DNA of 64,000 nt. It comes from Candidatus Binataceae bacterium (GTDB lineage: Bacteria; Desulfobacterota; Binatia; Binatales; Binataceae). Made by a program: the position numbers and the translations under genes. The stretch is taken from positions 7,908 to 71,907 of the forward strand of contig DASXMJ010000090.1 of NCBI GenBank assembly GCA_036495685.1. The letters run 5' to 3'. The notes beneath the pieces were generated by a model. That model did not search any database. It worked only from the letters and a program-made list of their open reading frames with translations, and had not been told where the DNA came from. Positions 25,276-64,000 of this stretch are shown piece after piece (the stretch's first letter is position 1; each line of letters begins with the position of its first letter).

Positions 25276-25429
25276 GGTAGCGGTGTGCTCTCCGGAGCGC
25301 GGAGAATTTCCGCAGCCACATCGGCGGAGTTGCCCGGGTAGCCGCCAGTATCGAAAAGCAACTTTGGTTCTCGTCAAGCGCAGCGCGCTCGACTAGAGTC
25401 ACGGGCGGCAAATGCACACGGAGGTCGGT

Positions 25430-26026: not shown

Positions 26027-26045
26027 TAGCGGAGAAGTAAATCCA

Positions 26046-46341: not shown

Positions 46342-46364
46342 GCCTTAACGGGAGAGGTGAGGTT

Positions 46365-48255: not shown

Positions 48256-48265
48256 AGGCTGACCC

Positions 48266-49120: not shown

Positions 49121-49170
49121 AAAAGTCAGGGCGCCCAATACCCAAGTTTCCAGAGAGGGTATCACGAGAA

Positions 49171-49198
49171 CTTTGTGTCCCGGTGCCTTTGTGGTTAA
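49171..49198. repeat. Single arm resembling the ACCACAAAGnCAC..GACACAAAG interspersed (REP-like) repeat
   Basis: CTTTGTGTCCCGGTGCCTTTGTGGTTAA; no partner arm in window. Confidence 0.3.
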
Positions 49199-49260
49199 GT
49201 CCCTTCTACGCTTGAAGGCGCCACGGCTTCAGAGCACATGAGTCAGTTCTGCACACGCCT

Positions 49261-50184
49261 ATGGAGATAATTCGCGATCTGGAGCGGCTCACGCGCCACT
49301 CTCACCCCGTGGTCACGCCCGGCAACTTCGATGGGGTGCATCTGGGCCATCGGGCGATCCTGAAGGCCACCATCGATCGTGCTCGCGCCGCGGGGGGCAC
49401 CGCCTTTGCGCTCACTTACGAACCGCTACCCCAAAAATTCCTATTCCCGGAGCGTGCTCCGCAGCTAATCCTGGCGCCGCCGGACAAGTTGGAACTGCTG
49501 CGCCTGTCGGGACTCGATGGTGTGATCGTGCTGGAATTCAACTTGCGACTTAGCGAGGTGGAGCCGCGCGATTTCGTGCGCGAGTACCTGCTGGGGAAAA
49601 TCGGCGCACGCGAAGTGATCATCGGTCACAGCGTCAATTTCGGCCATAAGCGCGCCGGGAACGCAGCGGTGATGGTCGAACTGGGGCACGAGCTGGGATT
49701 TGACACCGCGGTGGTCGGACCCGTCAGAGTCGGTGGGACGGAAGTCAGCTCGACCAAGATTCGCGAGCTCATCTCGGGCGGCGATTTGCGCGGCGCCTCC
49801 GAGCTGCTGGGCCGGTATCACTTCCTGCACGGTCCGGTCGTGCATGGGCGTGAGCGCGGGCGCACGATCGGCTTTCCAACCGCAAACATCGAGAGCGACA
49901 CCGAATGCATCCCGCCCGATGGGGTTTACGCGACCAGGGTGGTGCTGGACGACGGTGCGTTCGGCTCGATAACCAACATCGGAATGCGCCCGACATTTAA
50001 CGAAGGGGTACGTTCGGTCGAGGCGCACATCTTCGACTTCAGTCGCGACATATACGGTCAGCGCGTGAAGCTGGAGCTAATCGAACGCATCCGGGGCGAG
50101 AGGAAATTCGCGAGCGGTGACGCCCTGCGCAGTCAGATCGCTATCGATTTAACCAGGGCCAGGCAAATTCTGGCCACGGTCTAA
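49261..50184 (+). CDS. ribF: Bifunctional riboflavin kinase/FAD synthetase
   Basis: GNFDGVHLGH, VSSTKIR, GRTIGFPTAN, GMRPTF, VEAHIFDF. Confidence 0.95.
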   Translation: MEIIRDLERLTRHSHPVVTPGNFDGVHLGHRAILKATIDRARAAGGTAFALTYEPLPQKFLFPERAPQLILAPPDKLELLRLSGLDGVIVLEFNLRLSEVEPRDFVREYLLGKIGAREVIIGHSVNFGHKRAGNAAVMVELGHELGFDTAVVGPVRVGGTEVSSTKIRELISGGDLRGASELLGRYHFLHGPVVHGRERGRTIGFPTANIESDTECIPPDGVYATRVVLDDGAFGSITNIGMRPTFNEGVRSVEAHIFDFSRDIYGQRVKLELIERIRGERKFASGDALRSQIAIDLTRARQILATV

Positions 50185-50424
50185 AGCGGTTCCCTGGCCT
50201 TTCCTTTCACTGGCCTTATAGCCGGCGGGAGAGTGCGAAGTGCGGATTCGGAATTGCGACCCAAGCGGTAGCCTGGGCGCAATTGTTTGGTCGCCCTGCG
50301 CACCCCAGCACATTGGAGATCGGAAATCTTAGCGACTGATGAAGACAGCGCACGGTGCTTGCTTGGATTTCCCTACCGCCCGCCTCTTGGACAAGACGCG
50401 GGACTACGCGCTACGGATGGCGTT

Positions 50425-51558
50425 ATGGCTGAGCAACGCTTTTCCGTAATTACCGAGAAGGGGATGTCCGACCTGCGCAAGCTCGTCGGCGTACCGGTTC
50501 AAGACTCGCTTGAGCCGTGGTGTTACGAGGCGACTCGCGACAATATCCGCCACTGGGCCCACGGCATCGGTGACGACAATCCGCTGTGGTGCGACCCGGC
50601 ATATGCCGGGAATACCGGCTACGGCCGGCTGGTAGCGCCGCCCTCTTTTATTTTTCCGCTCAACCGCTCCTTCAGCGGCTATGTCGCTGGATTGCCGGGA
50701 ATCCATGCGATGTTCGCAGGCATCGATGTAACCTGGCACCATCCGATGCTGCTCGGCGACGAGTTCACGACCAAGGTATGGCTCAAGGAACTCGTAGAGC
50801 ATCAGACGCGATTCGCCGGTCGCTCCATTCAACAGATCTATCGGTGTGAGTTCTACAACCAGAATCGGCAGCTGGTCGCCGAAGGCGATAGCTGGTGTTT
50901 TCGCACCGAACGTGACACCGCGCGCGAACAAGGCACCAAGTACGAGGCGGTGAAGAAGAAGGCGGCGGTGCACTACACCCGCGACGAGCTCGCGAAAATT
51001 TTCGCGCTCTACGCCGCCGAGCAAATCCGGGGTGCCGAGCCGCGTTACGTCGAAGACGTGCACGTCGGCGACCAGCTGCCGAGGATGGTCAAGGGGCCGA
51101 TGACCGTCACCGGCTTTATCGCGTTCGCGCAGGGCTGGGGCGGCCTCTACATCCGCGCCAACAAACTTGCGTGGAAGCAACTCCAGAAGCATCCGGGGCT
51201 GGGCATCGCGAATCGGTTTGGCATTCCCGACGTACCCGAACGGGTTCATTGGGACGACGACCTGGCAGCACTAGTAGGCACCCCTGCGGCATATGACTAC
51301 GGCCCCGAGCGGTGCTCGTGGATGGCGCACCATCTGACCAACTGGATGGGCGACGACGGTTCCCTGCGCCATCTGCACGTCGAGATTCGCCGCCACAATC
51401 CCGTCGGCGACACGCTCTACATCGATGGCGAAGTATCGCGGTCCTTTGCGGAGAACGGCGCGCACTATGTGGAGATCAAACAGAAGGCGGTGAATCAAGA
51501 CAGCGAACTGTCGGTGCTGGCCACCGGCATCGTCCGGCTATCATCTCGCACAGCATGA
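50425..51558 (+). CDS. Double hot-dog (tandem MaoC-like) acyl-CoA dehydratase
   Basis: WAHGIGDDNPLW, LVAPP; second domain DVHVGDQLP..KGP, AYDYGPER. Confidence 0.8.
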   Translation: MAEQRFSVITEKGMSDLRKLVGVPVQDSLEPWCYEATRDNIRHWAHGIGDDNPLWCDPAYAGNTGYGRLVAPPSFIFPLNRSFSGYVAGLPGIHAMFAGIDVTWHHPMLLGDEFTTKVWLKELVEHQTRFAGRSIQQIYRCEFYNQNRQLVAEGDSWCFRTERDTAREQGTKYEAVKKKAAVHYTRDELAKIFALYAAEQIRGAEPRYVEDVHVGDQLPRMVKGPMTVTGFIAFAQGWGGLYIRANKLAWKQLQKHPGLGIANRFGIPDVPERVHWDDDLAALVGTPAAYDYGPERCSWMAHHLTNWMGDDGSLRHLHVEIRRHNPVGDTLYIDGEVSRSFAENGAHYVEIKQKAVNQDSELSVLATGIVRLSSRTA

Positions 51559-51601
51559 GTTTTGAGGTCGGCCGGCTGCGCGCGAACTGGGCGCAGCACG
51601 T

Positions 51602-53473
51602 TCAGAGCTTCGTGAAACCGTCGCGGCTCCACTGCTCGGAACCAACGCCGTTATGGACGATGAAAAGCCCATCGGGGTCGTACTTCCGTTTTATTTCAGC
51701 CAATCGCGGGTAGTTGCCTCCCCAATACGATTGCTGCCATCCCTTCTCGAAATAGTTGCTCTCGCTCACGTACGCTCCGGTTTCTCCGCTGACCGCGCGA
51801 AGTTCATTAACGCACCGATCGATGCGCTCCGCTGCCCTTCGGCCTTCGTCAACCGACGGCTCGTGCCCGGGAATTCCAGGATACGCTGGCCCCTGCCCGT
51901 CGGCCGCAATCACCAGCGCGAAAGCGCTCAGAACCGCAGGATTGGTCGCCGTGTCCTTGGCCGCGGCGATCGCCTCGGGCGGTGCTCCCCCGAGCCCCTT
52001 ATTGAAGTGCAGTTCCAGACCCGAATGTCGGGAGGCGGCGAATAGTGCGTCGGCTAGCCGCTGCTGCGATCTGCTATCAAGCAGCGATTCGGGCAGCCAT
52101 AGCGATTCGTATGCCCATATGTACCAACCACACTCGCCCGTGTTGCCCTTCCACCATGCGTTGTTCGATCCCGCGCCAGGCCGATTGTCATAGTCCAAAA
52201 TAGGTTGAGAAATCAGGTGGAGGAGCACGTCGTCGAGCAGCGCGTGCACCGGATTGCCGTTTCGAGGGAGAATTACTTCGGGCCAATGTTCTTTCCACCA
52301 CGCTACGTCCCAGAAATGCCGCGCTGGAATACTTCCAATCGTCACCGGCCATTTGACGGAATAGTCGTTGGAACGCTTGACCCAGTCGAGGAACGGTTGC
52401 CAGACCTTCTTTGGTTGCTCGGCGTCCAATCCATGAGAGAGCATCGCGATTTCGAAGGTGTTGTCGGGACGCATGCGCGCCTGCTCACCCCAGTGATCGT
52501 TGAAAAGGTTCTCGCTGTAGAAACTCACAAACTGACGGATGAGCCGCCGATAAGCATCGTCTGACGCCGCCGTGATTTTGAAGTTGACGGTTCCGAAGTA
52601 CTCGGGAAGATCGTGGGCTCGCACCGTCAACCTGCTTACGGCCCCGAAGGTGCCGCCGCCACCACCCTTGAGTGCCCAGAACAGGTCGGGATTGGTGCAT
52701 GCGTTTGCGATTCGAATTTGGCCGTCGGAGGTTACGACCTCGGCTTCGAGCAAGCTTCCGGCGGCAGTGCCGTAGTGCTTCGAAAAACTCCCGAAGCCAC
52801 CGCCCTGGATTAGGCCCGCCAGTCCGACAGTCAGGCATCCACCGCCCTGGACGTACTTCCCTCCTTTACTGATAACCGCATCGTACGCCTGAATCCCGAT
52901 CGTGCCGGCACCGAGGGTCACCGCAGGTTGAGGCTTGAGCGTATGCTCGCATCCCTGCGGTACGAATGCGTCATGCATCTTGATCTCATGCATGTGGCGC
53001 GTCCAGATGAGGAGCGATTCGGGCGCGTTGGATGTGCCCTGGTAGCTATGGCCGCCCCCCTTGATCGCGAGCCGCAAATTGTTTTCGCGAGCGAAATTGA
53101 CGGCGGCGGCGATATCCTGCGCATTTCGCGCCGCGAGGGCGTAAACACTTGGTTTAGTCTCCCACGCATCGACCCATCCTAGTGTTTCCGTGAGGCCGGC
53201 TTGGTCACCGATGTAATACGGATTCTTGAGATTCTTCAGAAAAGCCTTTGCGGCATCACTGTCCGGATTGTTTTTGAGTATCGAGAGGGGAAAGTCGATC
53301 GGAATAAGATTTCCGCCGACGGTTTCGTTAAGCTGCTTCCATGCGGTCTGCGACGGCCACGCCGCATCACTCGGACGGTAACGGCTGGATGGCGCCGCCG
53401 CCCGCACCCCTGGCGGCATCATCGTGAGCAAGGCAGCCGCACCCGACGCTTTGAGGAATGTTCTTCTGTTCAT
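51602..53473 (-). CDS. Tat-exported FAD-linked oxidase, VAO/BBE family (copy 1)
   Basis: NRRTFLK Tat signal, KGGGHSY, QGGGCLTVG, DLFWALKGGGG, C-terminal YWG.NYPRL..IK.KYDP. Confidence 0.9.
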   Translation of the reverse strand: MNRRTFLKASGAAALLTMMPPGVRAAAPSSRYRPSDAAWPSQTAWKQLNETVGGNLIPIDFPLSILKNNPDSDAAKAFLKNLKNPYYIGDQAGLTETLGWVDAWETKPSVYALAARNAQDIAAAVNFARENNLRLAIKGGGHSYQGTSNAPESLLIWTRHMHEIKMHDAFVPQGCEHTLKPQPAVTLGAGTIGIQAYDAVISKGGKYVQGGGCLTVGLAGLIQGGGFGSFSKHYGTAAGSLLEAEVVTSDGQIRIANACTNPDLFWALKGGGGGTFGAVSRLTVRAHDLPEYFGTVNFKITAASDDAYRRLIRQFVSFYSENLFNDHWGEQARMRPDNTFEIAMLSHGLDAEQPKKVWQPFLDWVKRSNDYSVKWPVTIGSIPARHFWDVAWWKEHWPEVILPRNGNPVHALLDDVLLHLISQPILDYDNRPGAGSNNAWWKGNTGECGWYIWAYESLWLPESLLDSRSQQRLADALFAASRHSGLELHFNKGLGGAPPEAIAAAKDTATNPAVLSAFALVIAADGQGPAYPGIPGHEPSVDEGRRAAERIDRCVNELRAVSGETGAYVSESNYFEKGWQQSYWGGNYPRLAEIKRKYDPDGLFIVHNGVGSEQWSRDGFTKL

Positions 53474-53560
53474 CTAACCCGCCTCAGAAATCATTCCAAT
53501 GCGATGTCGACCATCTCACGTCATCGCACTCGTGGTGCGGCACGTTGGCATAGCTCGAAA

Positions 53561-54047
53561 TGTATCTTACCCACGATGGTCGTTATACCCGCGGGTAGTT
53601 TTCTGATCGGGGATAGCGTCTACGGGCGTCCGCCACATCGGGTTAAGATCAAGACCCCTTTTGCGGTTGCCAAGGACCTGGTCACGCGACAGGAATATCA
53701 GGTGTTTGTGACTGACACTGGATATTCCGCCGATCGGTCGTGGCAATCTATCGACAAGAAAAGTGACGATCCTGTAGTGAATGTAGACTGGGACGACGCG
53801 CAGGCTTATGTGCAATGGCTAAGCGCGAAAACGAACCACCGGTATCGACTCCTCTCCGAATCAGAATACGAATACGCGGAACGAGCCGGATCGACGACGT
53901 TTTTCTGGTGGGGCGATGAAGCAGCGGCGGTCTGCCTCTACGCGAACTATCACAATTGCAGTAGCGGACCGGAGCGTGTAGGCGCATACCGCCCCAATGC
54001 GTTCGGCCTCGACGATATGACCGGAACCACATTCGAGTGGGTGGAAG
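53561..54047 (+). pseudogene. Truncated formylglycine-generating enzyme (FGE-sulfatase/SUMF1) domain remnant
   Basis: MVVIPAG, PVVNVDWDDAQAY..WLS, YRLLSESEYEYA.RAG, PNAFGL.DM.G..FEW; breaks off where the ABC gene ends. Confidence 0.7.
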
Positions 54048-54050
54048 CGG

Positions 54051-55757
54051 CTATGCTGCCGTTTGCACCTCGAAGTCGTCACTTGCTCCAATCTTCCACT
54101 CGCGATCGGGCGAGAGTTGCAGGACGTTGCGATGGAACTTCAGAAGAGTGGGACGATGACCCGAGCTCAGGAATGGAATCGCCTGTTTGCTCAACAACTC
54201 ATACATCAACTGTTCGTTTGCGACGTCAAGCGCGCTGGTCGCTTCGTCCAGGAACGCAAATCGTGGGCGATTCAGAAGCAGACGCGCGAATGCGAGCCGC
54301 TGCTGCTCACCCGGCGACAGTACATCCGCCCAATGCATCTCCGCGTCGAGCCCGCCGAATCGCTCGGGCAGATTCGACAGATTCACCGTTCGCAGCATCT
54401 CATAAAGTTGTTCGTCGCTCTTTCCAGAAGCTTTTGGATAGGTGAGCTGATCGCGCAGCGAGCCTAACACCATGTAAGGACGCTGCGGCAGAAACATAAC
54501 GTCGGCGAGCGGGGGGCGAGTAACAGTGCCGCTTCCTTCGCGCCAGATTCCCGCCAACGCGCGCATCAGCGAAGTCTTGCCGGTTCCGCTGGGCCCCTGA
54601 ACCAGCACCGGCTCGAGCGCGCTCACGTCCACGTTCAGGTCCTGGATCAGCGTCCTGCCGCCATCGGGAGTCATCACGGTCAGCTGGTCGAGCTCCACGC
54701 CGGGTCCGTCGGCAATTTCGATCATTTTGTGATCACCATCGGCGTCGAATTTACGCGCGGCGTCCGCCTCCTCGAGATATTCGCCCAGGCGGACCACGAC
54801 GTTTGCGTAATTGGTAATGTCCACAAAGTTGGTCACGATGATCGACAGCGCCGTGTGCAGCGCCGCGAAGGCGGCGGCGGCTTGCGGCACCTGTCCGAAC
54901 TGGATCCGGCCCGCGACATAGGCCGCGGCCAGGAATAAAGTCGGAACCAGCACGGCCAGGCCGCCGTACGAATCGGTCAGAAATCCGAGATTGCGCTTCC
55001 ACAGGATCAGGTCCTTGAAGTTTCTGACCACCGCCGCGAACCGGTGGCGCAACTGATCCGATTCGTGCCGCTCGCCGCCGTACATGAAGATCGGCTCGAT
55101 ATTGTCGCGCACGTGAACCAGGCCGAAGCGGAAATCCCCCTGGTACCTTTCCTGGAAATAGTTGAGACCGATGAGCCGCCGTCCTATGACTACCGAGAAG
55201 TAGGTGCCCGCGATCGCATAGGCAATCAGGAACAGCGCAAGCGACGATGAGATCGACCACAGGATCGCGAAGTACGTAGCTACCCCGGCGATCGCAAACA
55301 CCAGCGGAACTGTGAGCCGTTCGGTCCATTCGACGAACGAGCCGATATCGTCGGCGATTCGCTGGTCGGGATTATCGACCTTGCCGACCAGACTCATGCG
55401 GTAGAACGCACGATGCGCAAATCCCTGGTCCACGAAATAATGCGTGAGCCATTCGCGCCACTCGATATACAGCAGGCCGCCCGTGTATTCCTCAAAGACT
55501 TTTGCGAACGCACCGGCTATCGTCGCCGCCACGGCCAGCAACATTAAGTGGTAAAAGGGGATCAGGTGCTTCCCCAGCAGCGCGTTGGTGACGTCCCGGC
55601 TCAGGTACGTCCCGTATGCGCCGAGCGCGAGTCCTATCGCCCCGAGCCCCCCGACACACATCAGCAGCTTCACGCCGCGACGCCGATCCCTCGATACCCA
55701 ATAGAGTCTGACCAGTGACCAGACTCGCTTCCAGAAAGTCCTGTCAAACCTGTTCAA
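54051..55757 (-). CDS. ABC transporter permease/ATPase fusion, BclA/Rv1819c/YddA (ABCD-like) family
   Basis: DNPDQRI, RFGLVHVRDNIE, GPSGTGKT, FLPQRPY, WADVLSPGEQQRLAFARLL, LDEATSALD. Confidence 0.9.
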   Translation of the reverse strand: MNRFDRTFWKRVWSLVRLYWVSRDRRRGVKLLMCVGGLGAIGLALGAYGTYLSRDVTNALLGKHLIPFYHLMLLAVAATIAGAFAKVFEEYTGGLLYIEWREWLTHYFVDQGFAHRAFYRMSLVGKVDNPDQRIADDIGSFVEWTERLTVPLVFAIAGVATYFAILWSISSSLALFLIAYAIAGTYFSVVIGRRLIGLNYFQERYQGDFRFGLVHVRDNIEPIFMYGGERHESDQLRHRFAAVVRNFKDLILWKRNLGFLTDSYGGLAVLVPTLFLAAAYVAGRIQFGQVPQAAAAFAALHTALSIIVTNFVDITNYANVVVRLGEYLEEADAARKFDADGDHKMIEIADGPGVELDQLTVMTPDGGRTLIQDLNVDVSALEPVLVQGPSGTGKTSLMRALAGIWREGSGTVTRPPLADVMFLPQRPYMVLGSLRDQLTYPKASGKSDEQLYEMLRTVNLSNLPERFGGLDAEMHWADVLSPGEQQRLAFARLLLNRPRFAFLDEATSALDVANEQLMYELLSKQAIPFLSSGHRPTLLKFHRNVLQLSPDREWKIGASDDFEVQTAA

Positions 55758-55815
55758 TGACCTTCCCTCGCGATGGGGTGCTCTTCAGCAAGCGGTATGC
55801 CGATCAGATTCAAAC

Positions 55816-57696
55816 TTACAGCTTGGTGAATCCGTCGCGGCTCCACTGTTCGGAGCCGACTCCATTGTGAACGAAGAATAGCCCGTCTGGATCGTACTTA
55901 GCTTTGAGCTGAGCGAGCCGCGGATGATTGCTGCCCCAGTACGCTTGCTGCCAATCCTTCTCGAAGTAATTGCTCTCGCTCCAGTAAGCTCCGGTCGCCC
56001 CGGTCACGGCGCGTAGCTGATCGACACAATCATCAACGCGCTTTCGAGCGGCGCGCCCCTGCGCAACTTCAGGCTCGTGACCCGGAATTCCAGGATAGGC
56101 TGAGCCCTGCGCGTCACCGACGATCGCGAGCGCAAATGCGTCCAGCACCGCGGGATTGGTTGCTGTATCCTTTGCAGCTGCGATCACGTCCGGTGGCGCT
56201 CCCGCGAGTCCCTTATTGCAATGCAACTCGAGACCTGAATGGCGCGAGGCCGCAAACAAGGCGTCGGCGAGATGCTGCTGCGAGTTGCCCTCGAGCAGCG
56301 CGCCTGGAATCCATAGCGACTCCATTCCCCAGAGGTACCAACCGCACTGACCGGCATCGCCTTGCCACCACGCGTTACTCGGATTCGCACCCGGCCGCTC
56401 GTCGAGCTTGAAGACTGGTTGCGGAATGACGTCAACCAGGACACGATCGAGAAGACCGCTCAACATTCCTGTATTGGGGATTGCGATCTCGGGCCAATGC
56501 TCCTTCCACCAGTCGACATCCCACCAACGTTGAGCCGGCACGGTTCCGATCACAACTCGTCCTTGGAACGAATAGTCACTCGATGAACTCTTCAGCCATT
56601 CGAGAAACGGCTGCCACACCTTGTTCGCCTCGGCTCGGTCAAGTCCCTGCGAGGACATGTTGATCTCAAATACGTTGTCCGGCCGGAAGCGCGCCTGCTC
56701 TCCCCAATGATCGTTGAAGAGATTCTCTTTGTAGAAGCTCACAAACTGGCGGATAAGCCGCCGATAGGCATCGTCCGAAGAGACCTTGACTTTGAAGTTG
56801 GCCCCGCCGAAGTGCTCGGGAAGATCGTGAACGCGCAGCGTCACCTTGCTAATCACCCCGTAGCTTCCGCCACCGCCGCCTTTCAACGCCCAGAACAGAT
56901 CGGGATTATTGGTTGCGTTGGCAATTCGAATCTGGCCGTCCGCCGTGACGACCTCGGCCTCGAGCAGGCCCGCGGCTGCCGTGCCATAGTGTTTCGAATA
57001 GCTTCCAAAGCCACCGCTCTGGATGAGGCCCGCGACACCTACCGTTGTACATCCTCCGCCCTGGACATACTTCCCGCCCTTGGTGGTGACCGCCTGATAC
57101 GCCTGCATCCAGATCGTTCCTGCGCCGAGCGTGACCGCGGGCTGTGGCTTCAGAGTCTGTTCACATCCCTGCGGCACGAACGCGTCATGCATCTCGATAT
57201 CGTGCATGTGCCGCGTCCAGATGAGCAGTGAGTCGGCCGCGTTGGACGTCCCCTGGTAGCTATGCCCCCCGCCTTTGACCGCGAGGCGCAGATTGTTGTC
57301 GCGCGCGAATTTAACCGCCGCCGCGATGTCTTCAGCGTTCCTCGCCGCGACTGCGTAAACACTTGGTTTGGTGTCCCACGCATCGACCCAACCGAGTGAC
57401 TGAGTAAGCCCCGGCTGATCGCCGATAAAAAAAGGATTCTTCAGATTCTTCCAAAGCTGCTTGGCTGCGTCGCTGTCCGGATCCTTCTGAAGGATCGAAA
57501 TCGGAAAATCGACGGGAATAAGATTGCCGCCGACCGTTTCGTCAAGCTGCTTCCACGCGGTCTTAGAGGGCCACGCCGGATCCCTAGGACGAACTCGCGT
57601 GAAGTTTGTGTTCGTAGCCGCCGATAGTGGATGCGGCAGGATAGGCAGCAGCGCCGCTGATCCGATTGCTTTGAGGAATGCTCTTCTATTCATCAA
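55816..57696 (-). CDS. Tat-exported FAD-linked oxidase, VAO/BBE family (copy 2)
   Basis: NRRAFLK Tat signal, KGGGHSY, QGGGCTTVG, identical C-terminus HNGVGSEQWSRDGFTKL to copy 1. Confidence 0.9.
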   Translation of the reverse strand: MMNRRAFLKAIGSAALLPILPHPLSAATNTNFTRVRPRDPAWPSKTAWKQLDETVGGNLIPVDFPISILQKDPDSDAAKQLWKNLKNPFFIGDQPGLTQSLGWVDAWDTKPSVYAVAARNAEDIAAAVKFARDNNLRLAVKGGGHSYQGTSNAADSLLIWTRHMHDIEMHDAFVPQGCEQTLKPQPAVTLGAGTIWMQAYQAVTTKGGKYVQGGGCTTVGVAGLIQSGGFGSYSKHYGTAAAGLLEAEVVTADGQIRIANATNNPDLFWALKGGGGGSYGVISKVTLRVHDLPEHFGGANFKVKVSSDDAYRRLIRQFVSFYKENLFNDHWGEQARFRPDNVFEINMSSQGLDRAEANKVWQPFLEWLKSSSSDYSFQGRVVIGTVPAQRWWDVDWWKEHWPEIAIPNTGMLSGLLDRVLVDVIPQPVFKLDERPGANPSNAWWQGDAGQCGWYLWGMESLWIPGALLEGNSQQHLADALFAASRHSGLELHCNKGLAGAPPDVIAAAKDTATNPAVLDAFALAIVGDAQGSAYPGIPGHEPEVAQGRAARKRVDDCVDQLRAVTGATGAYWSESNYFEKDWQQAYWGSNHPRLAQLKAKYDPDGLFFVHNGVGSEQWSRDGFTKL

Positions 57697-57714
57697 TGAC
57701 CCTTCCGCGCAGTC

Positions 57715-58797
57715 TCACCGCGACAACTGCGGGCGGAGGCGGACAATGCCGAACATTGCGATAACCACCGCAAAGGCGAAGACCATCGCTGCGTCCGGAA
57801 CCACTTCGAACGCTGTCGCATGATCGAAAATCAAACCCAGATATGCGTCCATCGCCCACGATGCCGGAGACAGATGTGCAAGAGTTTTCATGAATGGCGG
57901 CACCACTTCGAGCGGCCACATGCATCCCCCCAGCATTCCGAGTGCCACCCCGATCCATGGTCCGAGTGAAGTCGCTTGCTGCGGAGTGCGGAACACCGTT
58001 CCCATCAACAATACGATCGCAACCCCCAGCGAGGTGACCGCCGCCGTGATCAACAACAGCCCCAGCGTATCGCCCCAGTGAACGCCGAAGAAAAACCTCG
58101 CGCTGAGAATCACGAACACCGCCTGCGCGATCATTTGCTGCGCCGGTCCGACCGCGAGCATCGCAAAGAGTTCCCAGGTGCGCCTAGGCGCGGCCAAAAG
58201 TCGGCGCGAAATTCCTCGTTCGCGAAGCTGGAGAATGGTAAGCGCCGACACGAAGCCGTTGATCATCACGAACAGCACCAGGTTCGCGGGGGCGGTGTAC
58301 GCGAATCCCAGTCGAGGAGAACCAGCGTGCCCTCCCGCTGGATACCGAACCCGAGCATCGAGCGGTTTGCCACCGTGCGCCATCGCGCTCAGTTCGGCAT
58401 CGATACCAACGCGCACGATGGTTGAGGTACTGCTGGCGCTGGAGAAGTACACAGGCAGGTTTCGCTCACCGTGCCATCCGGGTGGAATCAGGATTCCCGC
58501 GTTCATTCTGCCCCGGAACACTGCCATCCGAAGCCGGTCCTGATCGGTATATTCACGAATGCGAAACTGCTCGTTTGCTACCAGCGCTTGAGCTAGCGCG
58601 CGGCTTTCCCGGGTGTGCGCGCGATCGATTATCCCGACCGCGAACGATTGGCTGCTGTAGCCGCCCATTGCGAATCCCACGATTGCCATCACCGTCACCG
58701 GCACCAGGAACAGCGCCGTGAGCCGGCGGCGATCGCGGCTTACTCCGGCACCGCTGGCGGAAGCAGCGCCGAAGATGACATTCCAGCTGTGCGGCAT
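57715..58797 (-). CDS. ABC-2 type exporter permease
   Basis: TM, extracellular domain, ERGISRRLLAAP, LGGCMWP, SPASWA. Confidence 0.88.
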   Translation of the reverse strand: MPHSWNVIFGAASASGAGVSRDRRRLTALFLVPVTVMAIVGFAMGGYSSQSFAVGIIDRAHTRESRALAQALVANEQFRIREYTDQDRLRMAVFRGRMNAGILIPPGWHGERNLPVYFSSASSTSTIVRVGIDAELSAMAHGGKPLDARVRYPAGGHAGSPRLGFAYTAPANLVLFVMINGFVSALTILQLRERGISRRLLAAPRRTWELFAMLAVGPAQQMIAQAVFVILSARFFFGVHWGDTLGLLLITAAVTSLGVAIVLLMGTVFRTPQQATSLGPWIGVALGMLGGCMWPLEVVPPFMKTLAHLSPASWAMDAYLGLIFDHATAFEVVPDAAMVFAFAVVIAMFGIVRLRPQLSR

Positions 58798-58801
58798 CGG
58801 G

Positions 58802-59908
58802 TTACGTCATCCTCTGCAGCGCGCCGCGAGCCCGAAGTCCCGCGAACGCGATTCCGCTCAACCCAACTACCGCGGTGAATGCCAGGGGCTGAGCGATTGT
58901 GAGCAGGCTTCCACCCACGCCGGCGGCCGACAAGTCGATAAAGCCGAACTGGGCCTGCCCGTTTGGTGTGAGTCGAGTCAGCGTTTCGAACACATCAGGT
59001 AGTCCTTGCGGGGGCAGGAATTGGCCACCGACGATCGAGAGCAGGGTGATAACTATTGCCGCCAGTGCAGTGCCCTGTTCGGCATTGTTGGCGAGGCTCA
59101 TTAAGAACCCGGTCAGCCCAATCGCCATCAGCACACTGGTAAACATCAGCGCCGTCACAGGCAGCGGATTTCCCCAGCGCGTGCCGAACAAGACCGAGGT
59201 TGCGAGGACCATAGTCCCCATCTGCAGTAGTCCTATAAGCATCAAGGCAGCGAATTTTCCTACGAAGATCGCGTAGGGCTGCGACGGTGACGCGATCAGC
59301 CGCAAGATCGTGCGCGAATCGACCTCCGCCTGCATCGCACGAACCCCCGACAACACTCCGAAGATGAGGAAGAGCACCGTCATCGACACGGCGAAGAAAT
59401 CGACGACCCGCAACTGCCCGCCCGCAGAGACCGGAATCACCTCGCGGATCGTATGGTCGCCGGAAAGTACCGCACGGTTCATGAATCCGCGCAGCAGCCC
59501 GCGCGTCGCCAGCATCGCGAATTGCTCGCCACGTGCGGCCAGAATTTCCGCGGGCGGAGGATCGCCGCGCTCGATCGCCTGCGCAAATCCAGCGCCCAGT
59601 ACTACTGCACACTCCGCCTGATGCTGCTGAATCATCGTCTCTGCTGCCAGGACCGAATCGGCGGCTTCCACGTGAACCTTTCCCTGCAGCGTCGGCCTCT
59701 CAAGGAAGGCGACAAACCGCGATGAGAGCTCTGAATGCTCGAGATCCGCGATAGCAAGCCGCATCCCGGATCCGCCGTGTGAACCGCCGAGCGCCGAACC
59801 CATCAGCAAGGTCAGCGCGAGCGGTGCGCCGATAGCCGTCAGAATCGCGGTACGATCGCGCAGCCGCTGGCGAAGGTCCTTGATACAAACGATGAGCGCG
59901 TGACCCAT
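58802..59908 (-). CDS. ABC-2 type exporter permease
   Basis: KDLRQRLRD, RLIASP, VGGQFLP, LTPNG. Confidence 0.88.
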   Translation of the reverse strand: MGHALIVCIKDLRQRLRDRTAILTAIGAPLALTLLMGSALGGSHGGSGMRLAIADLEHSELSSRFVAFLERPTLQGKVHVEAADSVLAAETMIQQHQAECAVVLGAGFAQAIERGDPPPAEILAARGEQFAMLATRGLLRGFMNRAVLSGDHTIREVIPVSAGGQLRVVDFFAVSMTVLFLIFGVLSGVRAMQAEVDSRTILRLIASPSQPYAIFVGKFAALMLIGLLQMGTMVLATSVLFGTRWGNPLPVTALMFTSVLMAIGLTGFLMSLANNAEQGTALAAIVITLLSIVGGQFLPPQGLPDVFETLTRLTPNGQAQFGFIDLSAAGVGGSLLTIAQPLAFTAVVGLSGIAFAGLRARGALQRMT

Positions 59909-59914
59909 AGGAGA

Positions 59915-60871
59915 TCAGTCCCGCAGCGCGCGTCCCGTCATCCTCAGGAACACGTCCTCAAGATTCGGTTCCACCACCCGCACGCTCTCCGCCATCGCCC
60001 CGGCATTGAGCAGCGCCGTCAGCATCGCGGGCAACCGATTGGCGCCACGGTCGGCAACTACGTGAAGATGGTTGTTCTCCACGGTCGCCGACATCACCCC
60101 GTCGAGGGCGCCGACGATGCGTTCGGCGCGTTCCGGGGAGTCGCCCCGGCCCAATCCAATCTCGATGCGAGAATCCTGTCCCAGGCCCGCGACCAGCTCG
60201 GCGCGGGTGCCTTCGGCAATGAGCTTGCCCGAGTCGATAATCCCGATCCGCGCGCACAGGCGCTCCGCTTCCTCCATATAGTGCGTGGTGTAGAGGATCG
60301 CAGTGCCCTCGTCGCGCAGCCGCTCCACCAGATCGAAGATGGCGCTGCGGCTCTGCGGGTCCACGCCCACCGTCGGCTCATCAAGAATGAGGAGTTTGGG
60401 CTGATGCAGAATGCCGGCCGCGAGATTCAAGCGCCGCTGCATGCCGCCCGAGTAGGTGCCGACGATATCGTCGGCACGCTTGGTCAGACCCACCGCGTCA
60501 AGAGCGGCGTCAATCGCTTGCTGCAGTGCGGCGCCGCTGAGATCGTACATCCGTCCCCAGAAATCGAGATTTTCGCGCGCGGTGAGATCGAGATAGAGAG
60601 TGATCGCCTGCGGCACGATTCCGATCAGGGCACGTGCCGCCGGTCCCGCGTCGATATCGGTGCCATCGATCGCGACTTCGCCGGCGTCGCGCGCGAGGAT
60701 TCCCGCGATCATTGAGATCGAGGTGGTTTTGCCGGCGCCGTTGGGTCCCAGCAGTCCGTAGATTTCGCCAGGTGCGATGGTGAACCCGATACCATCGACA
60801 GCAAGCCGCGAACCGAAGCTCTTGCTGAGCCCTTTGACAACCAGTGGAGGCTTGGATTGTTCCCGGTTCAT
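59915..60871 (-). CDS. ABC-2 type exporter ATP-binding protein (LnrL/DrrA-like)
   Basis: GPNGAGKT, YSGGMQRRLN, LDEPTVGVDP, TTHYMEEAE, NLEDVF. Confidence 0.93.
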   Translation of the reverse strand: MNREQSKPPLVVKGLSKSFGSRLAVDGIGFTIAPGEIYGLLGPNGAGKTTSISMIAGILARDAGEVAIDGTDIDAGPAARALIGIVPQAITLYLDLTARENLDFWGRMYDLSGAALQQAIDAALDAVGLTKRADDIVGTYSGGMQRRLNLAAGILHQPKLLILDEPTVGVDPQSRSAIFDLVERLRDEGTAILYTTHYMEEAERLCARIGIIDSGKLIAEGTRAELVAGLGQDSRIEIGLGRGDSPERAERIVGALDGVMSATVENNHLHVVADRGANRLPAMLTALLNAGAMAESVRVVEPNLEDVFLRMTGRALRD

Positions 60872-60930
60872 CGCCTTTGCCGCCAGTCTCAGGTTTGTCC
60901 GCCAACCCGACCAAGCTCAGCCGTGCCGCA

Positions 60931-62430
60931 TCACGAGGCCGCGCTGATATCCAGCTGTTCGCGAGTCAGCACCTTCAGTTCATCTCCCGAATCAGGTTCA
61001 TCGGCGTTCTTAAGCCGCGCGAGGTTTTTCTCGTGCGTAGAACGGTCGATGTTGTAAAAGAGCAGTACTGTGATCGCGATCGCGCTGAAGATCGTGACAA
61101 TCGGAACGAAGACCATTCCCAGGTGATAGAGGATCGCGGGATCGACATGACCTTGCTGCGCGTGCTGCGGGAAGCTGATCCACGTAAGGATTAGACCGGA
61201 AAGGAAGGTACCGACTCCCGTGACGCATTTCGCGATAAGGCCATTGGCCGCGAACAGCAACCCCTCCGATCGCTGCCCAGTCGATACCGCCGCATCTTCG
61301 ACCACATCTGCCATCATCGAGCTCGCGATAATGAACCCGCTCAGGCCGAGCGTCGCCGCGACAAAGGTGAAGCCAAGGACGGTCATAAATACTGCGCGCG
61401 TACCGTTTGGTGGCAAGACGCCGATGAGGCGCAGCAAAATCGGGGTGCTCGACGCGAACAGCGACGTGAAGAAGACGGCGATCATCGCCGGCTTCTTGCC
61501 GAATCGTTTCGAGATCGCGGGCGCAAGTCCGACACCCGCGAAGGCAGCGACCAAAGTGGCTAGTGCAAGATACGACATCTGCGCGGGAGTGAGCTCGAAG
61601 AAGTACGCGGAGATGTAGAAGTCGAGGCCCTGCCTGAGGCCCGTCGAAATAGCTCCTACGATCCCGGAAACCGTCAGCGCCAAGAACGAGCGGTTGGTCA
61701 CCGTGCCGCTGATTTCGCGGAGCTTGTCGCGCCATCTGGTGCGAACCCTGGGCTCATGCACTACCGGGATGAAGCGGTGAGTACCGACGCACGAGATGAT
61801 GATCGAAAAGAAGATCGCGATACTCGCCGCGATCGCTGTCTCGCGGTAGCCTGCCGGATTCAGCAGGCCGAGAGGGTGCGTCGCGTCCTTGCGCAGAAAG
61901 ACCTGCAGCGCCACGAACGAAATCGCCGCGCCGCCGAGTGTGCCGAAAAAGAAGCGCGAGCTCATCAGGCTCGTGCGCTCGTCATAGTCGAACGTCAATT
62001 CAGGCCCCAGCGCGGAGCTCGGTATTTCGTAGAGGCTTAGCAGCACGCGCACCGTGACCAGCATCACGCCCATGTAAACGAGCAGGCTGGTCTTCGACCA
62101 TCCGAGCGGTGGCGCAAACAGGAAGTAAAACGCGATCGCGGCGGGCAGCGCCGACGCGTACATGAACGGATGCCGCCGGCCCCATCGCGAGCGTGTGTGA
62201 TCCGACCATTCGCCGATCAACGGATCGCAAACGGCGTCGAAGATCAGGGTGATCATGATCATCGCGCCGACCCAGGCCGCAGGCAGCCCGACCACCTGGT
62301 TGAAGAACAACAGGAGCGCGGAGGTGAGGGTCGCCTGATGGACTCCGAAGGCGACCGAGCCGACGCCGAAAAGAACGTTGGTCGAAAACGCGAGCCGCGG
62401 AGGCTTTGACGATGATTTTTCCGCGCTCAC
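60931..62430 (-). CDS. GPH-family (MelB-like) MFS cation symporter
   Basis: DAVCDPLIGEWSD.TRSRWGRRHPF, ELTFDYDERT, MMADVVE; GTGA overlap with the SDR stop. Confidence 0.88.
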   Translation of the reverse strand: MSAEKSSSKPPRLAFSTNVLFGVGSVAFGVHQATLTSALLLFFNQVVGLPAAWVGAMIMITLIFDAVCDPLIGEWSDHTRSRWGRRHPFMYASALPAAIAFYFLFAPPLGWSKTSLLVYMGVMLVTVRVLLSLYEIPSSALGPELTFDYDERTSLMSSRFFFGTLGGAAISFVALQVFLRKDATHPLGLLNPAGYRETAIAASIAIFFSIIISCVGTHRFIPVVHEPRVRTRWRDKLREISGTVTNRSFLALTVSGIVGAISTGLRQGLDFYISAYFFELTPAQMSYLALATLVAAFAGVGLAPAISKRFGKKPAMIAVFFTSLFASSTPILLRLIGVLPPNGTRAVFMTVLGFTFVAATLGLSGFIIASSMMADVVEDAAVSTGQRSEGLLFAANGLIAKCVTGVGTFLSGLILTWISFPQHAQQGHVDPAILYHLGMVFVPIVTIFSAIAITVLLFYNIDRSTHEKNLARLKNADEPDSGDELKVLTREQLDISAAS

Positions 62431-63239
62431 CAGGAACGCTCTCCACGCTGCGTGCACTCGACGCCGCCGTCAACAAAAAGGATCTGTCCTGTCATCAGCG
62501 AGTTCTCTTCGCTCAAGCACCAAGCGATGATTGCGGCCATCTGCTCCGGCCGTCCCGGATACGCGCCGCTGAGCGGCACCATCTGCCCCATCGCCGCCTT
62601 GCTCTCAGGATTCGAGAGGATGTACGCGGCGCCGGGCGTATCGATAAATCCCGGCGCGATCACGTTCAGCGTGATACCCGCGCCTGCCCACTCAGGAGAA
62701 CCGGCCGCGCGCCGGCACCAGCAGTTCAACGAGTACTTGGCGTTAGCGTACAGCGCCAACCCCACCTGCATCCCTTGCGTCGGTGTCATTTCGTTGATCG
62801 GCGCGATTTTCGCCGCAAATTTCCACGCGCCGTCGCTCGCCGCCTTCTCATCCATCCTCAGCATGGCATCAACGAGTCCCTGGTCGATTGGACTGAACGA
62901 CGCTATCGAAGAGACGGCGGTAGCCCGAGGCGCCGAGCTCGACTTGAGCAGCGGGCTCAGGCCTTCGAGCGTCGCGACCGTGCCGAAGAAGTTCAATTGC
63001 AGGCTGGTCTGCGGAGGACCGCCGCCGGCTACCGCGGCGATCGCGTCGATCTTGCCGCCCGAGAGACGCGTCACGCTGTCGACCAGGGCCTTGCGTCCTT
63101 CGCTGGTCGTAAGATCGGCAATGACATCGGCATTGCGGAGATCGCATCCGATAACCCGGCCGCCACGCTCTCGAAGCCATCGCGCAGTCGCCGCTCCGAT
63201 TCCGGAAGCGGCGCCGGTGACGACATAAGTTCGATCCAT
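62427..63239 (-). CDS. SDR oxidoreductase, 3-alpha-HSD/carbonyl reductase-like
   Basis: VVTGAASGIG, DVIADL, YANAK, NVIAPG, TGQILFVDGG. Confidence 0.85.
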   Translation of the reverse strand: MDRTYVVTGAASGIGAATARWLRERGGRVIGCDLRNADVIADLTTSEGRKALVDSVTRLSGGKIDAIAAVAGGGPPQTSLQLNFFGTVATLEGLSPLLKSSSAPRATAVSSIASFSPIDQGLVDAMLRMDEKAASDGAWKFAAKIAPINEMTPTQGMQVGLALYANAKYSLNCWCRRAAGSPEWAGAGITLNVIAPGFIDTPGAAYILSNPESKAAMGQMVPLSGAYPGRPEQMAAIIAWCLSEENSLMTGQILFVDGGVECTQRGERSW

Positions 63240-63388
63240 CGTTAACACTCCCGGCATCGGCGATTCGGGTAGGAGCAACCGCGATGCCATCGGCGAAGTC
63301 GGTCAAATTCCACAATTCCTCGTTCGCGCGAACGCAGTCCGGGCGCTGCGTGCAGCGTCACGCGTGCATACGATTTCGATCTCGACGA

Positions 63389-64000
63389 TCATTTAAATGC
63401 CGGCTTGACGATTCCGAGCTCGATCATCGTGCGGCCAGTCTCGAAGAGCGTGTCATCGACCGGCCGCGTCGTAAGGCCCAGCTCCTCGCGCGCGCGATCG
63501 CAATAGGCGCGTGGCGAGTCATACGGGCGGCCATGCTTCGCGACAATCTCCGCGTATTGCTTCGGCGGACCGCCGACCGCGATATGCGGGAAGAGGCGCG
63601 ACAGATGCTCCTGCAGCTCGGCGGCGTTGAGCTCGCCCGATCGATCCGCTGCCGTCAGTTGATAGCGCCCGCCGTTCTTGCACCTGGCGCTTTCGATTGT
63701 CAGCGCGTGCGCCTCGCCCACGTCGCGCACGTCCACGATATTCCACAGATGCTGCCAACCGCGCCCGCACGGCTTTCCCATCAGCATCCGTCCGAGGAAG
63801 TATTGCCACGAGCCCGGCAGCTCATGCGCGCGCGAGAGCAGCGGCCCCAGCCCGGCGCACGGACACACAGTGATTACGTCGAAGCGTCCGTCCTCCTCCG
63901 CGACGCGCCACGCCATCCGCTCGGTCGCAATCTTGCCCATCGCGTACGCGACGTCGCCGTTGGTGTCGATACTCTCAGGGGTCCAGCTCGCATCCTTGCC
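63389..64000 (-). CDS. Extended SDR, dihydroflavonol/aldehyde reductase-like (5' part outside window)
   Basis: Frame open to the window edge; YAMGK YxxxK, VITVCP..GPLL, VDVRDVGEAH. Confidence 0.8.
   Translation of the reverse strand, partial: GKDASWTPESIDTNGDVAYAMGKIATERMAWRVAEEDGRFDVITVCPCAGLGPLLSRAHELPGSWQYFLGRMLMGKPCGRGWQHLWNIVDVRDVGEAHALTIESARCKNGGRYQLTAADRSGELNAAELQEHLSRLFPHIAVGGPPKQYAEIVAKHGRPYDSPRAYCDRAREELGLTTRPVDDTLFETGRTMIELGIVKPAFK

Follow-up and report, generated by a model that had tools for sequence, protein, structure and literature searches.

Two predicted Tat-exported flavin oxidases in a candidate TetR-controlled, modular gene cluster of Binataceae

The closest solved relatives of the two bacterial flavin oxidases considered here are fungal, namely MtVAO615 of Myceliophthora thermophila (PDB 6F72) and MtVAO713 (6F74), VAO/BBE-type enzymes of clade II that exceed ordinary BBE-like enzymes by about 100 residues owing to an extra N-terminal domain (PMC6017366). 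In MtVAO615, bicovalent binding of FAD through His157 and Cys222 was shown crystallographically, and the enzyme, which carries Val225 at the gatekeeper position, is a true oxidase (kox 1.3e5 M-1 s-1; PMC6017366). At this position, three residues behind the tethering Cys, Val permits a fast reaction with O2, whereas Leu suppresses it (PMC4513132). Exported BBE-like oxidases with transport genes beside them are found in the actinomycete clusters of AknOx, Dbv29, and TamL, where an enzyme of the twin-arginine translocation (Tat) type acts on a bulky molecule outside the cytoplasm and a DrrA-like ABC-2 pump as well as a TetR-family regulator adjoin. A catabolic cluster initiated by a periplasmic flavoenzyme is represented by eugenol hydroxylase-calA-ech of Pseudomonas. 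Here, we describe a locus that recalls these systems in part and lies at the end of a 64,000-nt stretch from a Candidatus Binataceae bacterium (assembly GCA_036495685.1, contig DASXMJ010000090.1, positions 7,908 to 71,907; this whole stretch is referred to as the window). It encodes two predicted Tat-exported flavin oxidases, BBE1 and BBE2, next to an MFS_2 symporter, an ABC-2 pump, an ABCD/Rv1819c-like transporter, and two short-chain dehydrogenases/reductases (SDRs).

We read this region as the larger part of a TetR-controlled, modular regulon of Binataceae for one class of bulky, hydroxylated exogenous compound, and give this reading about even chances. The association of its parts is real and selected: at least six gene orders occur under one operator, and what emerges is a modular regulon of part of the Binataceae, not a fixed multi-component system. 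Behind the operator, the proposed unit would comprise a co-directional string of genes for an amidohydrolase, an extended SDR, a classical SDR, MFS_2, the ABC-2 pump, BBE1, the ABCD-type protein, and, after a gap of 577 nt, BBE2 (Table 1). An inducer would free the palindromic operator from TetR; the oxidases would be exported in folded form to the periplasm, oxidise an alcohol-type group with O2, and release H2O2; and the compound or its oxidised product would enter via the MFS_2 symporter and/or the Rv1819c/ABCD-like protein. In the cytoplasm, the coupled SDR, which resembles 3-alpha-hydroxysteroid dehydrogenase/carbonyl reductase (3-alpha-HSD/CR), would act on the compound, as would a second SDR resembling dihydroflavonol and cinnamoyl-CoA reductases (DFR/CCR; a crotonase in one relative) and the D-aminoacylase-like amidohydrolase, while the DrrAB-like ABC-2 pump would clear surplus compound or a toxic intermediate. 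The window cuts the unit short, since a JGI soil contig (L085; homologous loci are numbered with an L), which is 99.1% identical to window positions 45813-64000 and extends 2.7 kb beyond, shows the full extended SDR, the Amidohydro_3 gene, and a divergent TetR gene past position 64000.

Evidence for common control comes from a conserved 18-bp palindrome, TTAGAATATCCGTTCTAA, between the TetR gene and the first structural gene; in L085 it lies about 2.2 kb past the window end. Of the fetched loci, 17 contain the exact form (TTAGAA-N6-TTCTAA), once per locus and never outside the intergenic region that adjoins the divergent TetR gene (e.g., L001:4623-4640, L008:7639-7656, and L115:5173-5190), and 11 further loci have it with up to two mismatches. 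As the exact 12-base pattern is expected by chance only about 0.002 times per 20-kb locus, the palindrome qualifies as a conserved operator-type site and is, judged by its sequence, the probable TetR operator overlapping the promoter. The first gene behind it varies and may encode the amidohydrolase (L001, L085, L171), the SDR (L008, L089, L102, and others), or MFS_2 (L117); in L115 the operator stands straight before an oxidase gene, and a one-mismatch copy precedes the second oxidase copy of L012. No copy was found inside the window, including the regions before BBE2 and the ABCD gene, and none beyond chance before stand-alone oxidase genes. Two further features of these intergenic regions were observed, namely a conserved cTTGAC element 13 nt upstream of the palindrome, the spacing of which misfits a canonical sigma-70 -35/-10 pair, and two tandem palindrome copies in L117, L118, and L126.

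The gene neighbourhoods of MFS_2 homologues indicate which parts of the cluster hold together most strongly. Where MFS_2 is at least 70% identical to that of the window, the SDR gene lies directly upstream in 28 of 38 informative loci, as compared to 1 of 21 below 70% identity, and a divergent TetR gene is near in 16 of 25 as compared to 1 of 17. An oxidase gene follows directly downstream in 12 of 39 loci of the closer group and is present elsewhere in the locus in four more, as compared to 0 of 25 in the more distant group for either position; the window-type ABC-2 trio is found in 2 of 39 and in none, respectively. The tight core is TetR|SDR-MFS_2, which the oxidase joins in about 40% of loci; a minority of loci, confined to Binataceae, add the ABC-2 or ABCD genes in varying order. 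The order SDR-MFS_2-BBE is also found in many metagenome loci. In MFS_2 loci that lack the oxidase, the next gene often encodes another redox enzyme (a luciferase-like oxidoreductase in four and a Gfo/Idh/MocA dehydrogenase in one).

Transporters and enzymes are exchanged around this core in various ways. The ABC-2 trio may stand between MFS_2 and the oxidase (window, L012, L121), between two oxidases (L006), or before MFS_2-BBE (L100), and is absent from L087, which has a tandem BBE-BBE pair; a 63% homologue of the trio occurs without any oxidase. In L094:172-2791 and L095:28-2647, an unrelated ABC-2 system (an ABC2_membrane_6 permease and an ATPase 29% identical to that of the window) lies directly upstream of MFS_2-BBE, as if this module had acquired an exporter on a separate occasion. 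In L012 a crotonase gene (PRK08290) takes the place of the DFR/CCR-like SDR, and the accessory genes of variant clusters encode an Abhydrolase_3 esterase, a Zn-dependent alcohol dehydrogenase (Zn-ADH), a monooxygenase resembling Baeyer-Villiger enzymes (BVMO-like), a luciferase-like oxidoreductase, and a crotonase. The ABCD gene is absent from all 79 genome loci of the oxidase survey described below. Elsewhere it occurs as TetR-ABCD-BBE with a 40-nt gap (L168-170; same order in L173), divergently from SDR-MFS_2 (L125), between two Amidohydro_3 genes together with a crotonase and a PhyH gene (L174), and in an unrelated context (L167). In L171/172 the order is TetR|amidohydrolase-ABCD-[frameshifted SDR]-[60-aa MFS_2 remnant]-ABC2-BBE-BBE: the ABCD gene comes straight after the amidohydrolase gene, the SDR gene is split by a frameshift, and MFS_2 is down to about 60 codons (L171:9945-10872; GCA_052146355.1). 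Because SDR and MFS_2 have decayed where ABCD is present, this one case (L171) suggests that MFS_2 and ABCD are alternative importers, one replacing the other.

So fluid an arrangement also invites the view that there is no system at all, and that independent units, namely an operon of TetR, SDR, and symporter, an efflux pump, an ABC importer, and duplicated oxidase genes that stand alone, just happen to be neighbours in a genome densely packed with genes. The usually solitary oxidase, the unfixed gene order, the arrival of the ABCD gene with a pseudogene junction, and homologues of each transporter without an oxidase (L167, L174, L176) are all in keeping with it. However, the same families have re-associated independently in at least six orders across many loci, the oxidase stands straight behind the shared TetR operator in L115 (with the one-mismatch copy in L012), and the genes of the window are co-directional with gaps of 4-60 nt, so that we hold mere juxtaposition to be decidedly improbable.

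For the oxidases themselves, 79 loci from species-representative genomes were retrieved with 10-kb flanks (53-85% identity) and searched with every cluster protein by tblastn. They span Binataceae, Acidobacteriota, Verrucomicrobiota, Steroidobacteraceae, Alphaproteobacteria, Gemmataceae, and Rhodanobacter. Six loci have cluster partners near the oxidase, and each belongs to the 18 loci of Binataceae type: L006 and L012 have the full set, L007, L008, and L013 have TetR|SDR-MFS_2-BBE, and L015 has MFS_2-BBE. On long contigs, solitary oxidase genes sit beside ribosomal or lipid genes. The family is large, with at least 8000 homologues at E<=1e-20 and 987 clusters at 50% identity (E<=1e-30), and the best 120 homologues, all at least 72% identical, come from Binataceae and Terriglobales. 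In a neighbour-joining tree, the cluster-linked copies of the Binataceae clade do not separate from the solitary ones but are mixed with them. BBE1 and BBE2 each pair with one of the two L006 copies, BBE2 being sister to the second of these; since the two pairs are sisters, the duplication predates the split between the window and L006. The first L006 copy (L006:10001-10060 as compared to window 53473-53414) is 85% identical to BBE1, yet has a signal peptide, MNRRTFLKASGAAALLSMMP, near-identical to that of BBE2, possibly a trace of gene conversion that affected the 5' ends of the paralogues. In Acidobacteriota, the oxidase gene was seen beside an ADOP-family (MacB-like) duplicated permease in seven loci and beside a LytS kinase and LytTR regulator in four (e.g., L034:12285-14966, L035:8001-9898); given the many ADOP genes per genome, these neighbours may be due to chance. 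A MaoC-type hydratase gene (L005:9198-9653) precedes one solitary oxidase and is maybe a coincidence.

This distribution could also be viewed from the side of the enzyme. The clade would then be an overlooked and widespread extracellular H2O2 producer acting on one common soil compound, around which Binataceae built a TetR regulon with alternative importers (MFS_2 or ABCD) and pumps; its range in that reading comprises Binatia, Acidobacteriota, Verrucomicrobiota, Planctomycetota, and Proteobacteria of soils, at 53-75% identity. We regard this as unlikely.

In the window, BBE1 and BBE2 are 73% identical over their full length, and a ratio of nonsynonymous to synonymous substitution rates (dN/dS) of 0.11 places both under purifying selection. 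Each combines FAD_binding_4 (PF01565) with a C-terminal BBE domain (PF08031) above the Pfam cut-offs and thus belongs to the BBE-like/VAO family with its VAO fold. The initial annotation had ascribed a Tat motif and both FAD-tethering residues to the two enzymes, and N-R-R-x-F-L-K, KGGGHSYQG, and QGGGC(T/L)TVG are indeed present in both. The predicted Tat signals, MNRRAFLKAIGSAALL...LSA and MNRRTFLKASGAAALL...VRA, were recognised by an N-terminal motif of the S/T-R-R-x-F-L-K kind, a hydrophobic stretch, and an A-x-A-type cleavage site; the Pfam TAT_signal cut-off is reached by BBE2 only, and the twin arginines are kept in a 47-sequence consensus. In an alignment of BBE1 with MtVAO615, its best solved relative by sequence (E 1.7e-52; MtVAO713 and EncM follow at about 1e-27), H145, C216, Y147, and E574 correspond to His157, Cys222, Tyr159, and Glu519, in line with the bicovalent attachment of FAD that had been proposed. 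Among 24 homologues the tethering His and Cys do not vary, and in a set of 47 both are conserved to at least 90%. The gatekeeper is Val (V219 in BBE1, with a matching Val in BBE2) and invariant in close homologues; because it is the residue of the oxidase class (PMC4513132) and MtVAO615, with the same Val, is rapidly reoxidised, the earlier proposal of an H2O2-releasing oxidase is well supported. By every testable sequence feature, the two enzymes belong to the bicovalent, O2-reactive class and to the orphan MtVAO615/713 clade.

Structure prediction points in the same direction. An AlphaFold2 (AF2) model of BBE1 from 24 homologues (72-87% identical) was unusable, with a mean predicted local distance difference test score (pLDDT) of 43.8; after 27 more distant representatives had been added, a model from 47 sequences (30-87% identity) reached a pLDDT of 90.2 and a predicted template-modelling (TM) score, pTM, of 0.89, with disorder limited to residues 1-28 (the signal peptide) and a loop (403-425). 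In Foldseek, the modelled fold matches 6f72, 6f74, EncM, GOOX, and BBE at probability 1.0, with 6F72 (TM score 0.83) and 6F74 (0.79) on top, followed by EncM, PpBBE1, FgCelDH7C, and ChitO, and the bacterial oxidases share the extra N-terminal domain with both fungal enzymes. In summary, they resemble MtVAO615/713 in the tethering His/Cys pair, the Val gatekeeper, putative export, and an unusual Glu (E574/Glu519) where sugar oxidases have the catalytic Tyr. They differ from MtVAO615, to which identity is only 26%, in an invariant NDHWGEQ motif and the disordered loop 403-425, in being bacterial and predicted Tat substrates whereas MtVAO615 is a glycosylated, secreted fungal protein, and in their location in a regulated transporter cluster. 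Two other analogies were dropped, as type II cholesterol oxidase is not among the best 60 PDB matches and DprE1/DprE2 match only via the generic FAD domain.

The cytoplasmic enzymes give some direction as to the substrate. The classical SDR carries the TGxxxGxG and YxxxK motifs, and its best PDB matches are 1fjh and 2dkn (3e-32; next best 1e-14), i.e., the 3-alpha-HSD/CR of Comamonas testosteroni (1FJH), which with the CalA-type coniferyl-alcohol dehydrogenase subfamily (PRK12428) is its nearest solved relative; as it scores 93.8 bits against a subfamily cut-off of 242, 3-alpha-HSD/CR is a nearest solved relative only. Unlike these relatives, it is predicted from the GTGA overlap at 62430-62427, between the SDR stop and the MFS_2 start, to be translationally coupled to the symporter; an open reading frame (ORF) of 287 aa for this SDR is not on record, as the called start differs. 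The extended SDR has DFR (4qtz, 2e-32) and CCR as PDB relatives. Within its N-terminal 200 residues only, the amidohydrolase is closest to N-acyl-D-glutamate deacylase, D-aminoacylase, and the N-acetylglucosaminate (GlcNAc1A) deacetylase PpOngB (1e-27). No signal peptide was detected in any of the three. Homology of the oxidases gives a chemistry but no substrate, because MtVAO615 is itself without a known one; in its clade, weak oxidation of ricinoleic acid (MtVAO713) and 22-oxidation of ecdysteroids in a relative have been reported (PMC6017366). The initial annotation had proposed a glycosylated, steroidal, or alkaloid compound that would be oxidised in the periplasm, imported or reduced, and exported as product or toxin. 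Taken together, the SDR relatives, these fungal sister-clade activities, and the accessory genes of variant clusters point by analogy to a lipophilic secondary alcohol or ketone as the most likely class of substrate, which may resemble a steroid, a terpenoid, or a hydroxy-lipid and could be conjugated. With the BVMO-like, esterase, Zn-ADH, and luciferase-like (LLM) genes that variant clusters add, the SDRs recall a scheme in which an alcohol is turned into a ketone and then into an ester, which is hydrolysed and passed on to beta-oxidation, as in known routes from alcohols via ketones and BVMO-derived esters to esterase products. With the eugenol hydroxylase-calA-ech system only the logic is shared, i.e., a periplasmic VAO-superfamily enzyme, a CalA-like SDR, and a crotonase, whereas here the oxidase is not a flavocytochrome and the cluster has neither an aldehyde dehydrogenase nor a CoA ligase.

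On chemistry, the main rival is an oxidative route for sugars or amino sugars. In the periplasm, an oligosaccharide, a glycoside, or an N-acetyl-amino sugar (from chitin or peptidoglycan debris) would be oxidised at its reducing end to a lactone or aldonate, the product would be imported by the GPH-type symporter and de-N-acetylated by the amidohydrolase as OngB does with GlcNAc1A, and the SDRs would process the sugar acid. MFS_2 does resemble the glycoside-pentoside-hexuronide (GPH) symporters, PpOngB is among the amidohydrolase matches, a Gfo/Idh/MocA dehydrogenase follows MFS_2 in one variant cluster, and the C1 sugar oxidases GOOX, ChitO, and N-acetylhexosamine (HexNAc) oxidase are structural neighbours of the oxidases (PMC9299179). 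Yet the symporter, with 288 bits in Pfam, reaches only 183 bits in the GPH model TIGR00792 (cut-off 231) and scores far under the cut-offs of the MelB, GusB, and YagG equivalog models, so that a sugar substrate is not established for it. The Glu at the catalytic position, where a sugar oxidase has Tyr, likewise speaks against such a route, as do the SDR, which is much closer to 3-alpha-HSD/CR than to sugar-acid SDRs (1e-12 or weaker), the restriction of the amidohydrolase match to the N-terminal part, and the failure of MtVAO615 to oxidise any of 23 carbohydrates (PMC6017366). The variant clusters showed no gene for a glycoside hydrolase, a sugar kinase, a deaminase, or an aldolase, and we consider a sugar pathway unlikely.

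The transporters bear on the purpose of the cluster. The initial annotation had assigned each protein to a family, and the nearest solved relatives agree with it for the two SDRs and the ABCD-type protein (3-alpha-HSD/CR, DFR/CCR, and ABCD1/Rv1819c/ABCD4), whereas membership of the ABC-2 trio in named DrrAB- or LnrLMN-type systems did not hold up against curated cut-offs: the ATPase scores 277.8 bits in TIGR01188 (drrA; cut-off 312.45), and the trio reaches 40 bits for drrB (cut-off 223) and 58-89 for SagH (cut-off 450). The trio is an ABC-2 exporter by family but stands outside these named systems. Permease 1 belongs to a small family (176 proteins at E<=1e-20), and homologues of permease 2 at 76-79% occur in L006, L100, L121, and L171. 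The ABCD-type protein matches plant ABCD1 (1e-92), Rv1819c (9e-77), and ABCD4 (7e-64) and shows the ABC_membrane_2 (SbmA/BacA-like) domain fused to an ABC ATPase that defines the Rv1819c/BacA-BclA/ABCD type. Its most likely start is a TTG at 55757 behind the ribosome-binding site GAGGGAAGG, and most homologues have 566-568 aa. It shares its domain set with Rv1819c (6TQE), BacA-BclA, ABCD4, and the peroxisomal ABCD proteins but is about 80 residues shorter than Rv1819c, and linkage of an ABCD member to an exported oxidase and to Amidohydro_3 (L171, L174) has not been described. Rv1819c and ABCD4 are importers, in agreement with their family names, and by analogy the window protein is probably one as well.

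With regard to purpose, resistance is the main rival. TetR would sense a toxic natural product, the ABC-2 pump would expel it, the exported oxidases would inactivate it outside the cytoplasm, and the reductases and hydrolase would act on it inside, without any role in nutrition. A TetR regulator with a DrrA-like ABC-2 pump is a classical resistance pairing, BBE-like enzymes of resistance or extracellular tailoring exist (McrA and AknOx, both among the matches), Rv1819c/BacA-type proteins take up antimicrobials according to their family names, two unrelated ABC-2 types were recruited beside MFS_2-BBE, and acidobacterial homologues adjoin the MacB-like ADOP permeases and LytS/LytTR sensors. Against this, the partner that recurs most steadily is a symporter of the importer type, coupled to a dehydrogenase, most loci lack the pump (it was found in 2 of 39 and a few others), and the accessory genes (crotonase, BVMO, esterase, ADH) look catabolic. 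A resistance island is in our view rather unlikely.

A remnant of a domain of the FGE-sulfatase type lies between BBE2 and the ABCD gene. It matches positions 3-191 of the 255-position profile only, and its homology stops exactly at the ABCD stop codon (junction 54050/54051), from where the ORF continues antisense through the ABCD gene; for these two reasons it is a 3'-truncated pseudogene at a rearrangement junction and stands outside the functional unit. The junction resembles a scar left when the ABCD gene came to lie between the two oxidase genes. In L085/L086 the relic is annotated as a fragment of 62 aa; it is absent from all 79 genome loci, and the ABCD gene with the FGE junction at this position is private to the window lineage. 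Its best named match is PvdO, far under the cut-off. As PvdO serves in pyoverdine maturation, the relic touches on another possibility, that the cluster matures a product of its own: the ABC-2 pump would export a cytoplasmic metabolite that the periplasmic oxidases then mature (as AknOx does with aclacinomycin, or as in pyoverdine), possibly with re-uptake by ABCD or MFS_2. An exporter followed by an exported bicovalent oxidase resembles the late steps of anthracycline pathways, and AknOx (2ipi) is among the matches. This similarity is, however, weak (1.5e-15, FAD domain only), and unlike the AknOx, Dbv29, and TamL clusters, the present one has importers and catabolic-type enzymes in place of biosynthetic genes and resides in a Gram-negative-type host. 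No polyketide synthase, nonribosomal peptide synthetase, terpene synthase, or glycosyltransferase gene was found in the 21-kb locus or its relatives, the flanks are housekeeping genes (Tol-Pal, ribF, gap, pgk), the pump is absent from most loci, and the FGE remnant, truncated and oriented oppositely, is a pseudogene. Maturation of an own product is very unlikely.

The inducible regulon for an exogenous compound has itself to be weighed against a number of observations. The initial annotation had expected a conserved multi-gene system with this layout, and had named gene order that is not conserved, or oxidases usually found without these transporters, as grounds for giving it up. Linkage of oxidase and transporters does recur in Binataceae in different gene orders, but the order is shuffled among loci, co-location is limited to part of the family, the oxidase stands without any cluster partner in 73 of the 79 species-level loci, and the SDR-MFS_2 core lacks the oxidase in 23 of 39 informative loci; a fixed system is therefore not what the data describe. 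De novo clustering of oxidase neighbours likewise gave no family that recurs in more than 7 of 77 loci. Within the window, BBE2 follows a pseudogene-bearing gap of 577 nt without a second operator, importer and exporter stand in one unit without a proven logic, and a scan for promoter and terminator consensus sequences (49-64 kb) returned fewer sites than shuffled sequences and was uninformative. On the side of the enzymes, no close relative has an established substrate, the pocket differs from that of MtVAO615 (His237 to Phe, Thr341 to Ala, Tyr352 to Asn), and MtVAO615 was inactive on steroids, secondary alcohols, and plant material as well as on the carbohydrates mentioned (PMC6017366). Finally, RNA contigs are nearly absent over the ABCD gene, in a library that may include DNA carry-over. 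All of these points weigh against the proposed regulon.

The RNA contigs in question stem from one soil metatranscriptome and are 95-99% identical over BBE2, permease 1, the ATPase, MFS_2, the SDR, and the extended SDR, with coverage that crosses the SDR/MFS_2 junction by 46 nt. They do not prove co-transcription, but close relatives probably express the cluster in soil. No RNA run holding the window sequence itself was found; three RNA-type runs contain 5-7% of its words. At window 60660-60770, a contig depth of up to 254 stems from many unrelated contigs that align to the conserved motifs of ABC ATPases and have unmatched ends on either side, and is not the gene's expression.

The gene content of the locus is given in Table 1. 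Genes were called from the list of ORFs and their translations and scanned against Pfam and NCBIfam. All ten elements that the initial annotation had listed are present at that place and in that order; its minus-strand orientation holds for the enzyme and transporter genes, whereas the FGE relic is a plus-strand feature that converges on the ABCD gene. From the SDR gene to the ABCD gene, the gaps measure -4, 59, 6, 4, 18, and 58 nt, in agreement with the initial annotation (under about 60 nt), and the proposed GTGA coupling was found. The pseudogene-containing gap sets BBE2 off from the upstream genes.

Table 1. Features of the oxidase-transporter cluster in the window and on the overlapping soil contig L085.
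Feature	Coordinates	Strand or position	Length and domains
BBE2, predicted Tat-signal, bicovalent-type BBE/VAO flavin oxidase	51602..53473	-	623 aa; Pfam FAD_binding_4, BBE, TAT_signal
FGE-sulfatase-domain relic, 3'-truncated	~53570..54050	+	partial Pfam match, profile 3-191 of 255
ABCD/Rv1819c(BacA)-type fused ABC transporter	54051..55757	-	568 aa; Pfam ABC_membrane_2, SbmA_BacA, ABC_tran
BBE1, predicted Tat-signal, bicovalent-type BBE/VAO flavin oxidase	55816..57696	-	625-626 aa; Pfam FAD_binding_4, BBE
ABC-2 permease 2	57715..58797	-	360 aa; Pfam ABC2_membrane_3, ABC2_membrane
ABC-2 permease 1	58802..59908	-	368 aa; Pfam ABC2_membrane_3
ABC-2 ATPase, DrrA/NodI-like	59915..60871	-	318 aa; Pfam ABC_tran, DrrA1-3_C
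MFS_2 (GPH-type) cation symporter	60931..62430	-	499 aa from GTG at 62430; Pfam MFS_2
Classical SDR, 3-alpha-HSD/carbonyl-reductase-like	62427..63239	-	270 aa; adh_short_C2
Extended SDR (DFR/CCR-like), C-terminal 203 codons, cut by window end	63389..64000	-	Epimerase; full gene 360 aa
Amidohydro_3 gene, outside window	L085:607-2250	upstream of extended SDR	547 aa
Probable palindromic operator TTAGAATATCCGTTCTAA, outside window	L085:492-509	between TetR and Amidohydro_3 genes	18 bp
TetR-family gene, outside window	L085:2-490	divergent	TetR family

The cluster ends at 51602, where it abuts a convergent hotdog-fold gene. This neighbour (50287-51558, +) encodes a double-hotdog protein (FAS1_DH_region, HadA/HadB-like) and faces BBE2 maybe by coincidence, as these genomes are rich in acyl-CoA genes. 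The rest of the window is ordinary chromosome with gap, pgk, a Tol-Pal cluster, ribF, a CoA-transferase gene, and MFS_1 transporters. A mobile element or foreign island was considered and rejected, as there is no integrase or transposase gene, the G+C content dips just slightly at 52-54 kb, and housekeeping genes make up both flanks. Elsewhere in the window, three long ORFs have no Pfam family at E<=1e-5 (24446-26098, -, 550 aa; 11082-12365, +, 427 aa; 1900-3021, -, 373 aa), and a 519-aa protein with a thioredoxin/AhpC-like domain and NHL repeats, unrelated to the cluster, is encoded at 3016-4575 (+).

Summed up, the locus does not represent a new type of machinery but an inducible cluster for catabolism or detoxification, modular in build and equipped with a predicted periplasmic flavin oxidase. 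A search of the literature on BBE-like enzymes of Binatia and Acidobacteria and on bicovalent, Tat-exported periplasmic oxidases found no published description of this oxidase subfamily or layout. The Binataceae clusters give the MtVAO615-like clade its first genomic context, with a dedicated repressor and its defined operator, pumps, two importers that may be alternatives, and dehydrogenases as partners, and thereby make the substrate question approachable by experiment. If the proposed regulon is correct, the repressor and operator would offer a direct handle on the missing substrate of an orphan enzyme clade. The bacterial oxidase subfamily is abundant in dominant uncultured soil phyla, and should its substrate be a compound that is common in soil, it would constitute an extracellular source of H2O2 relevant to carbon turnover.

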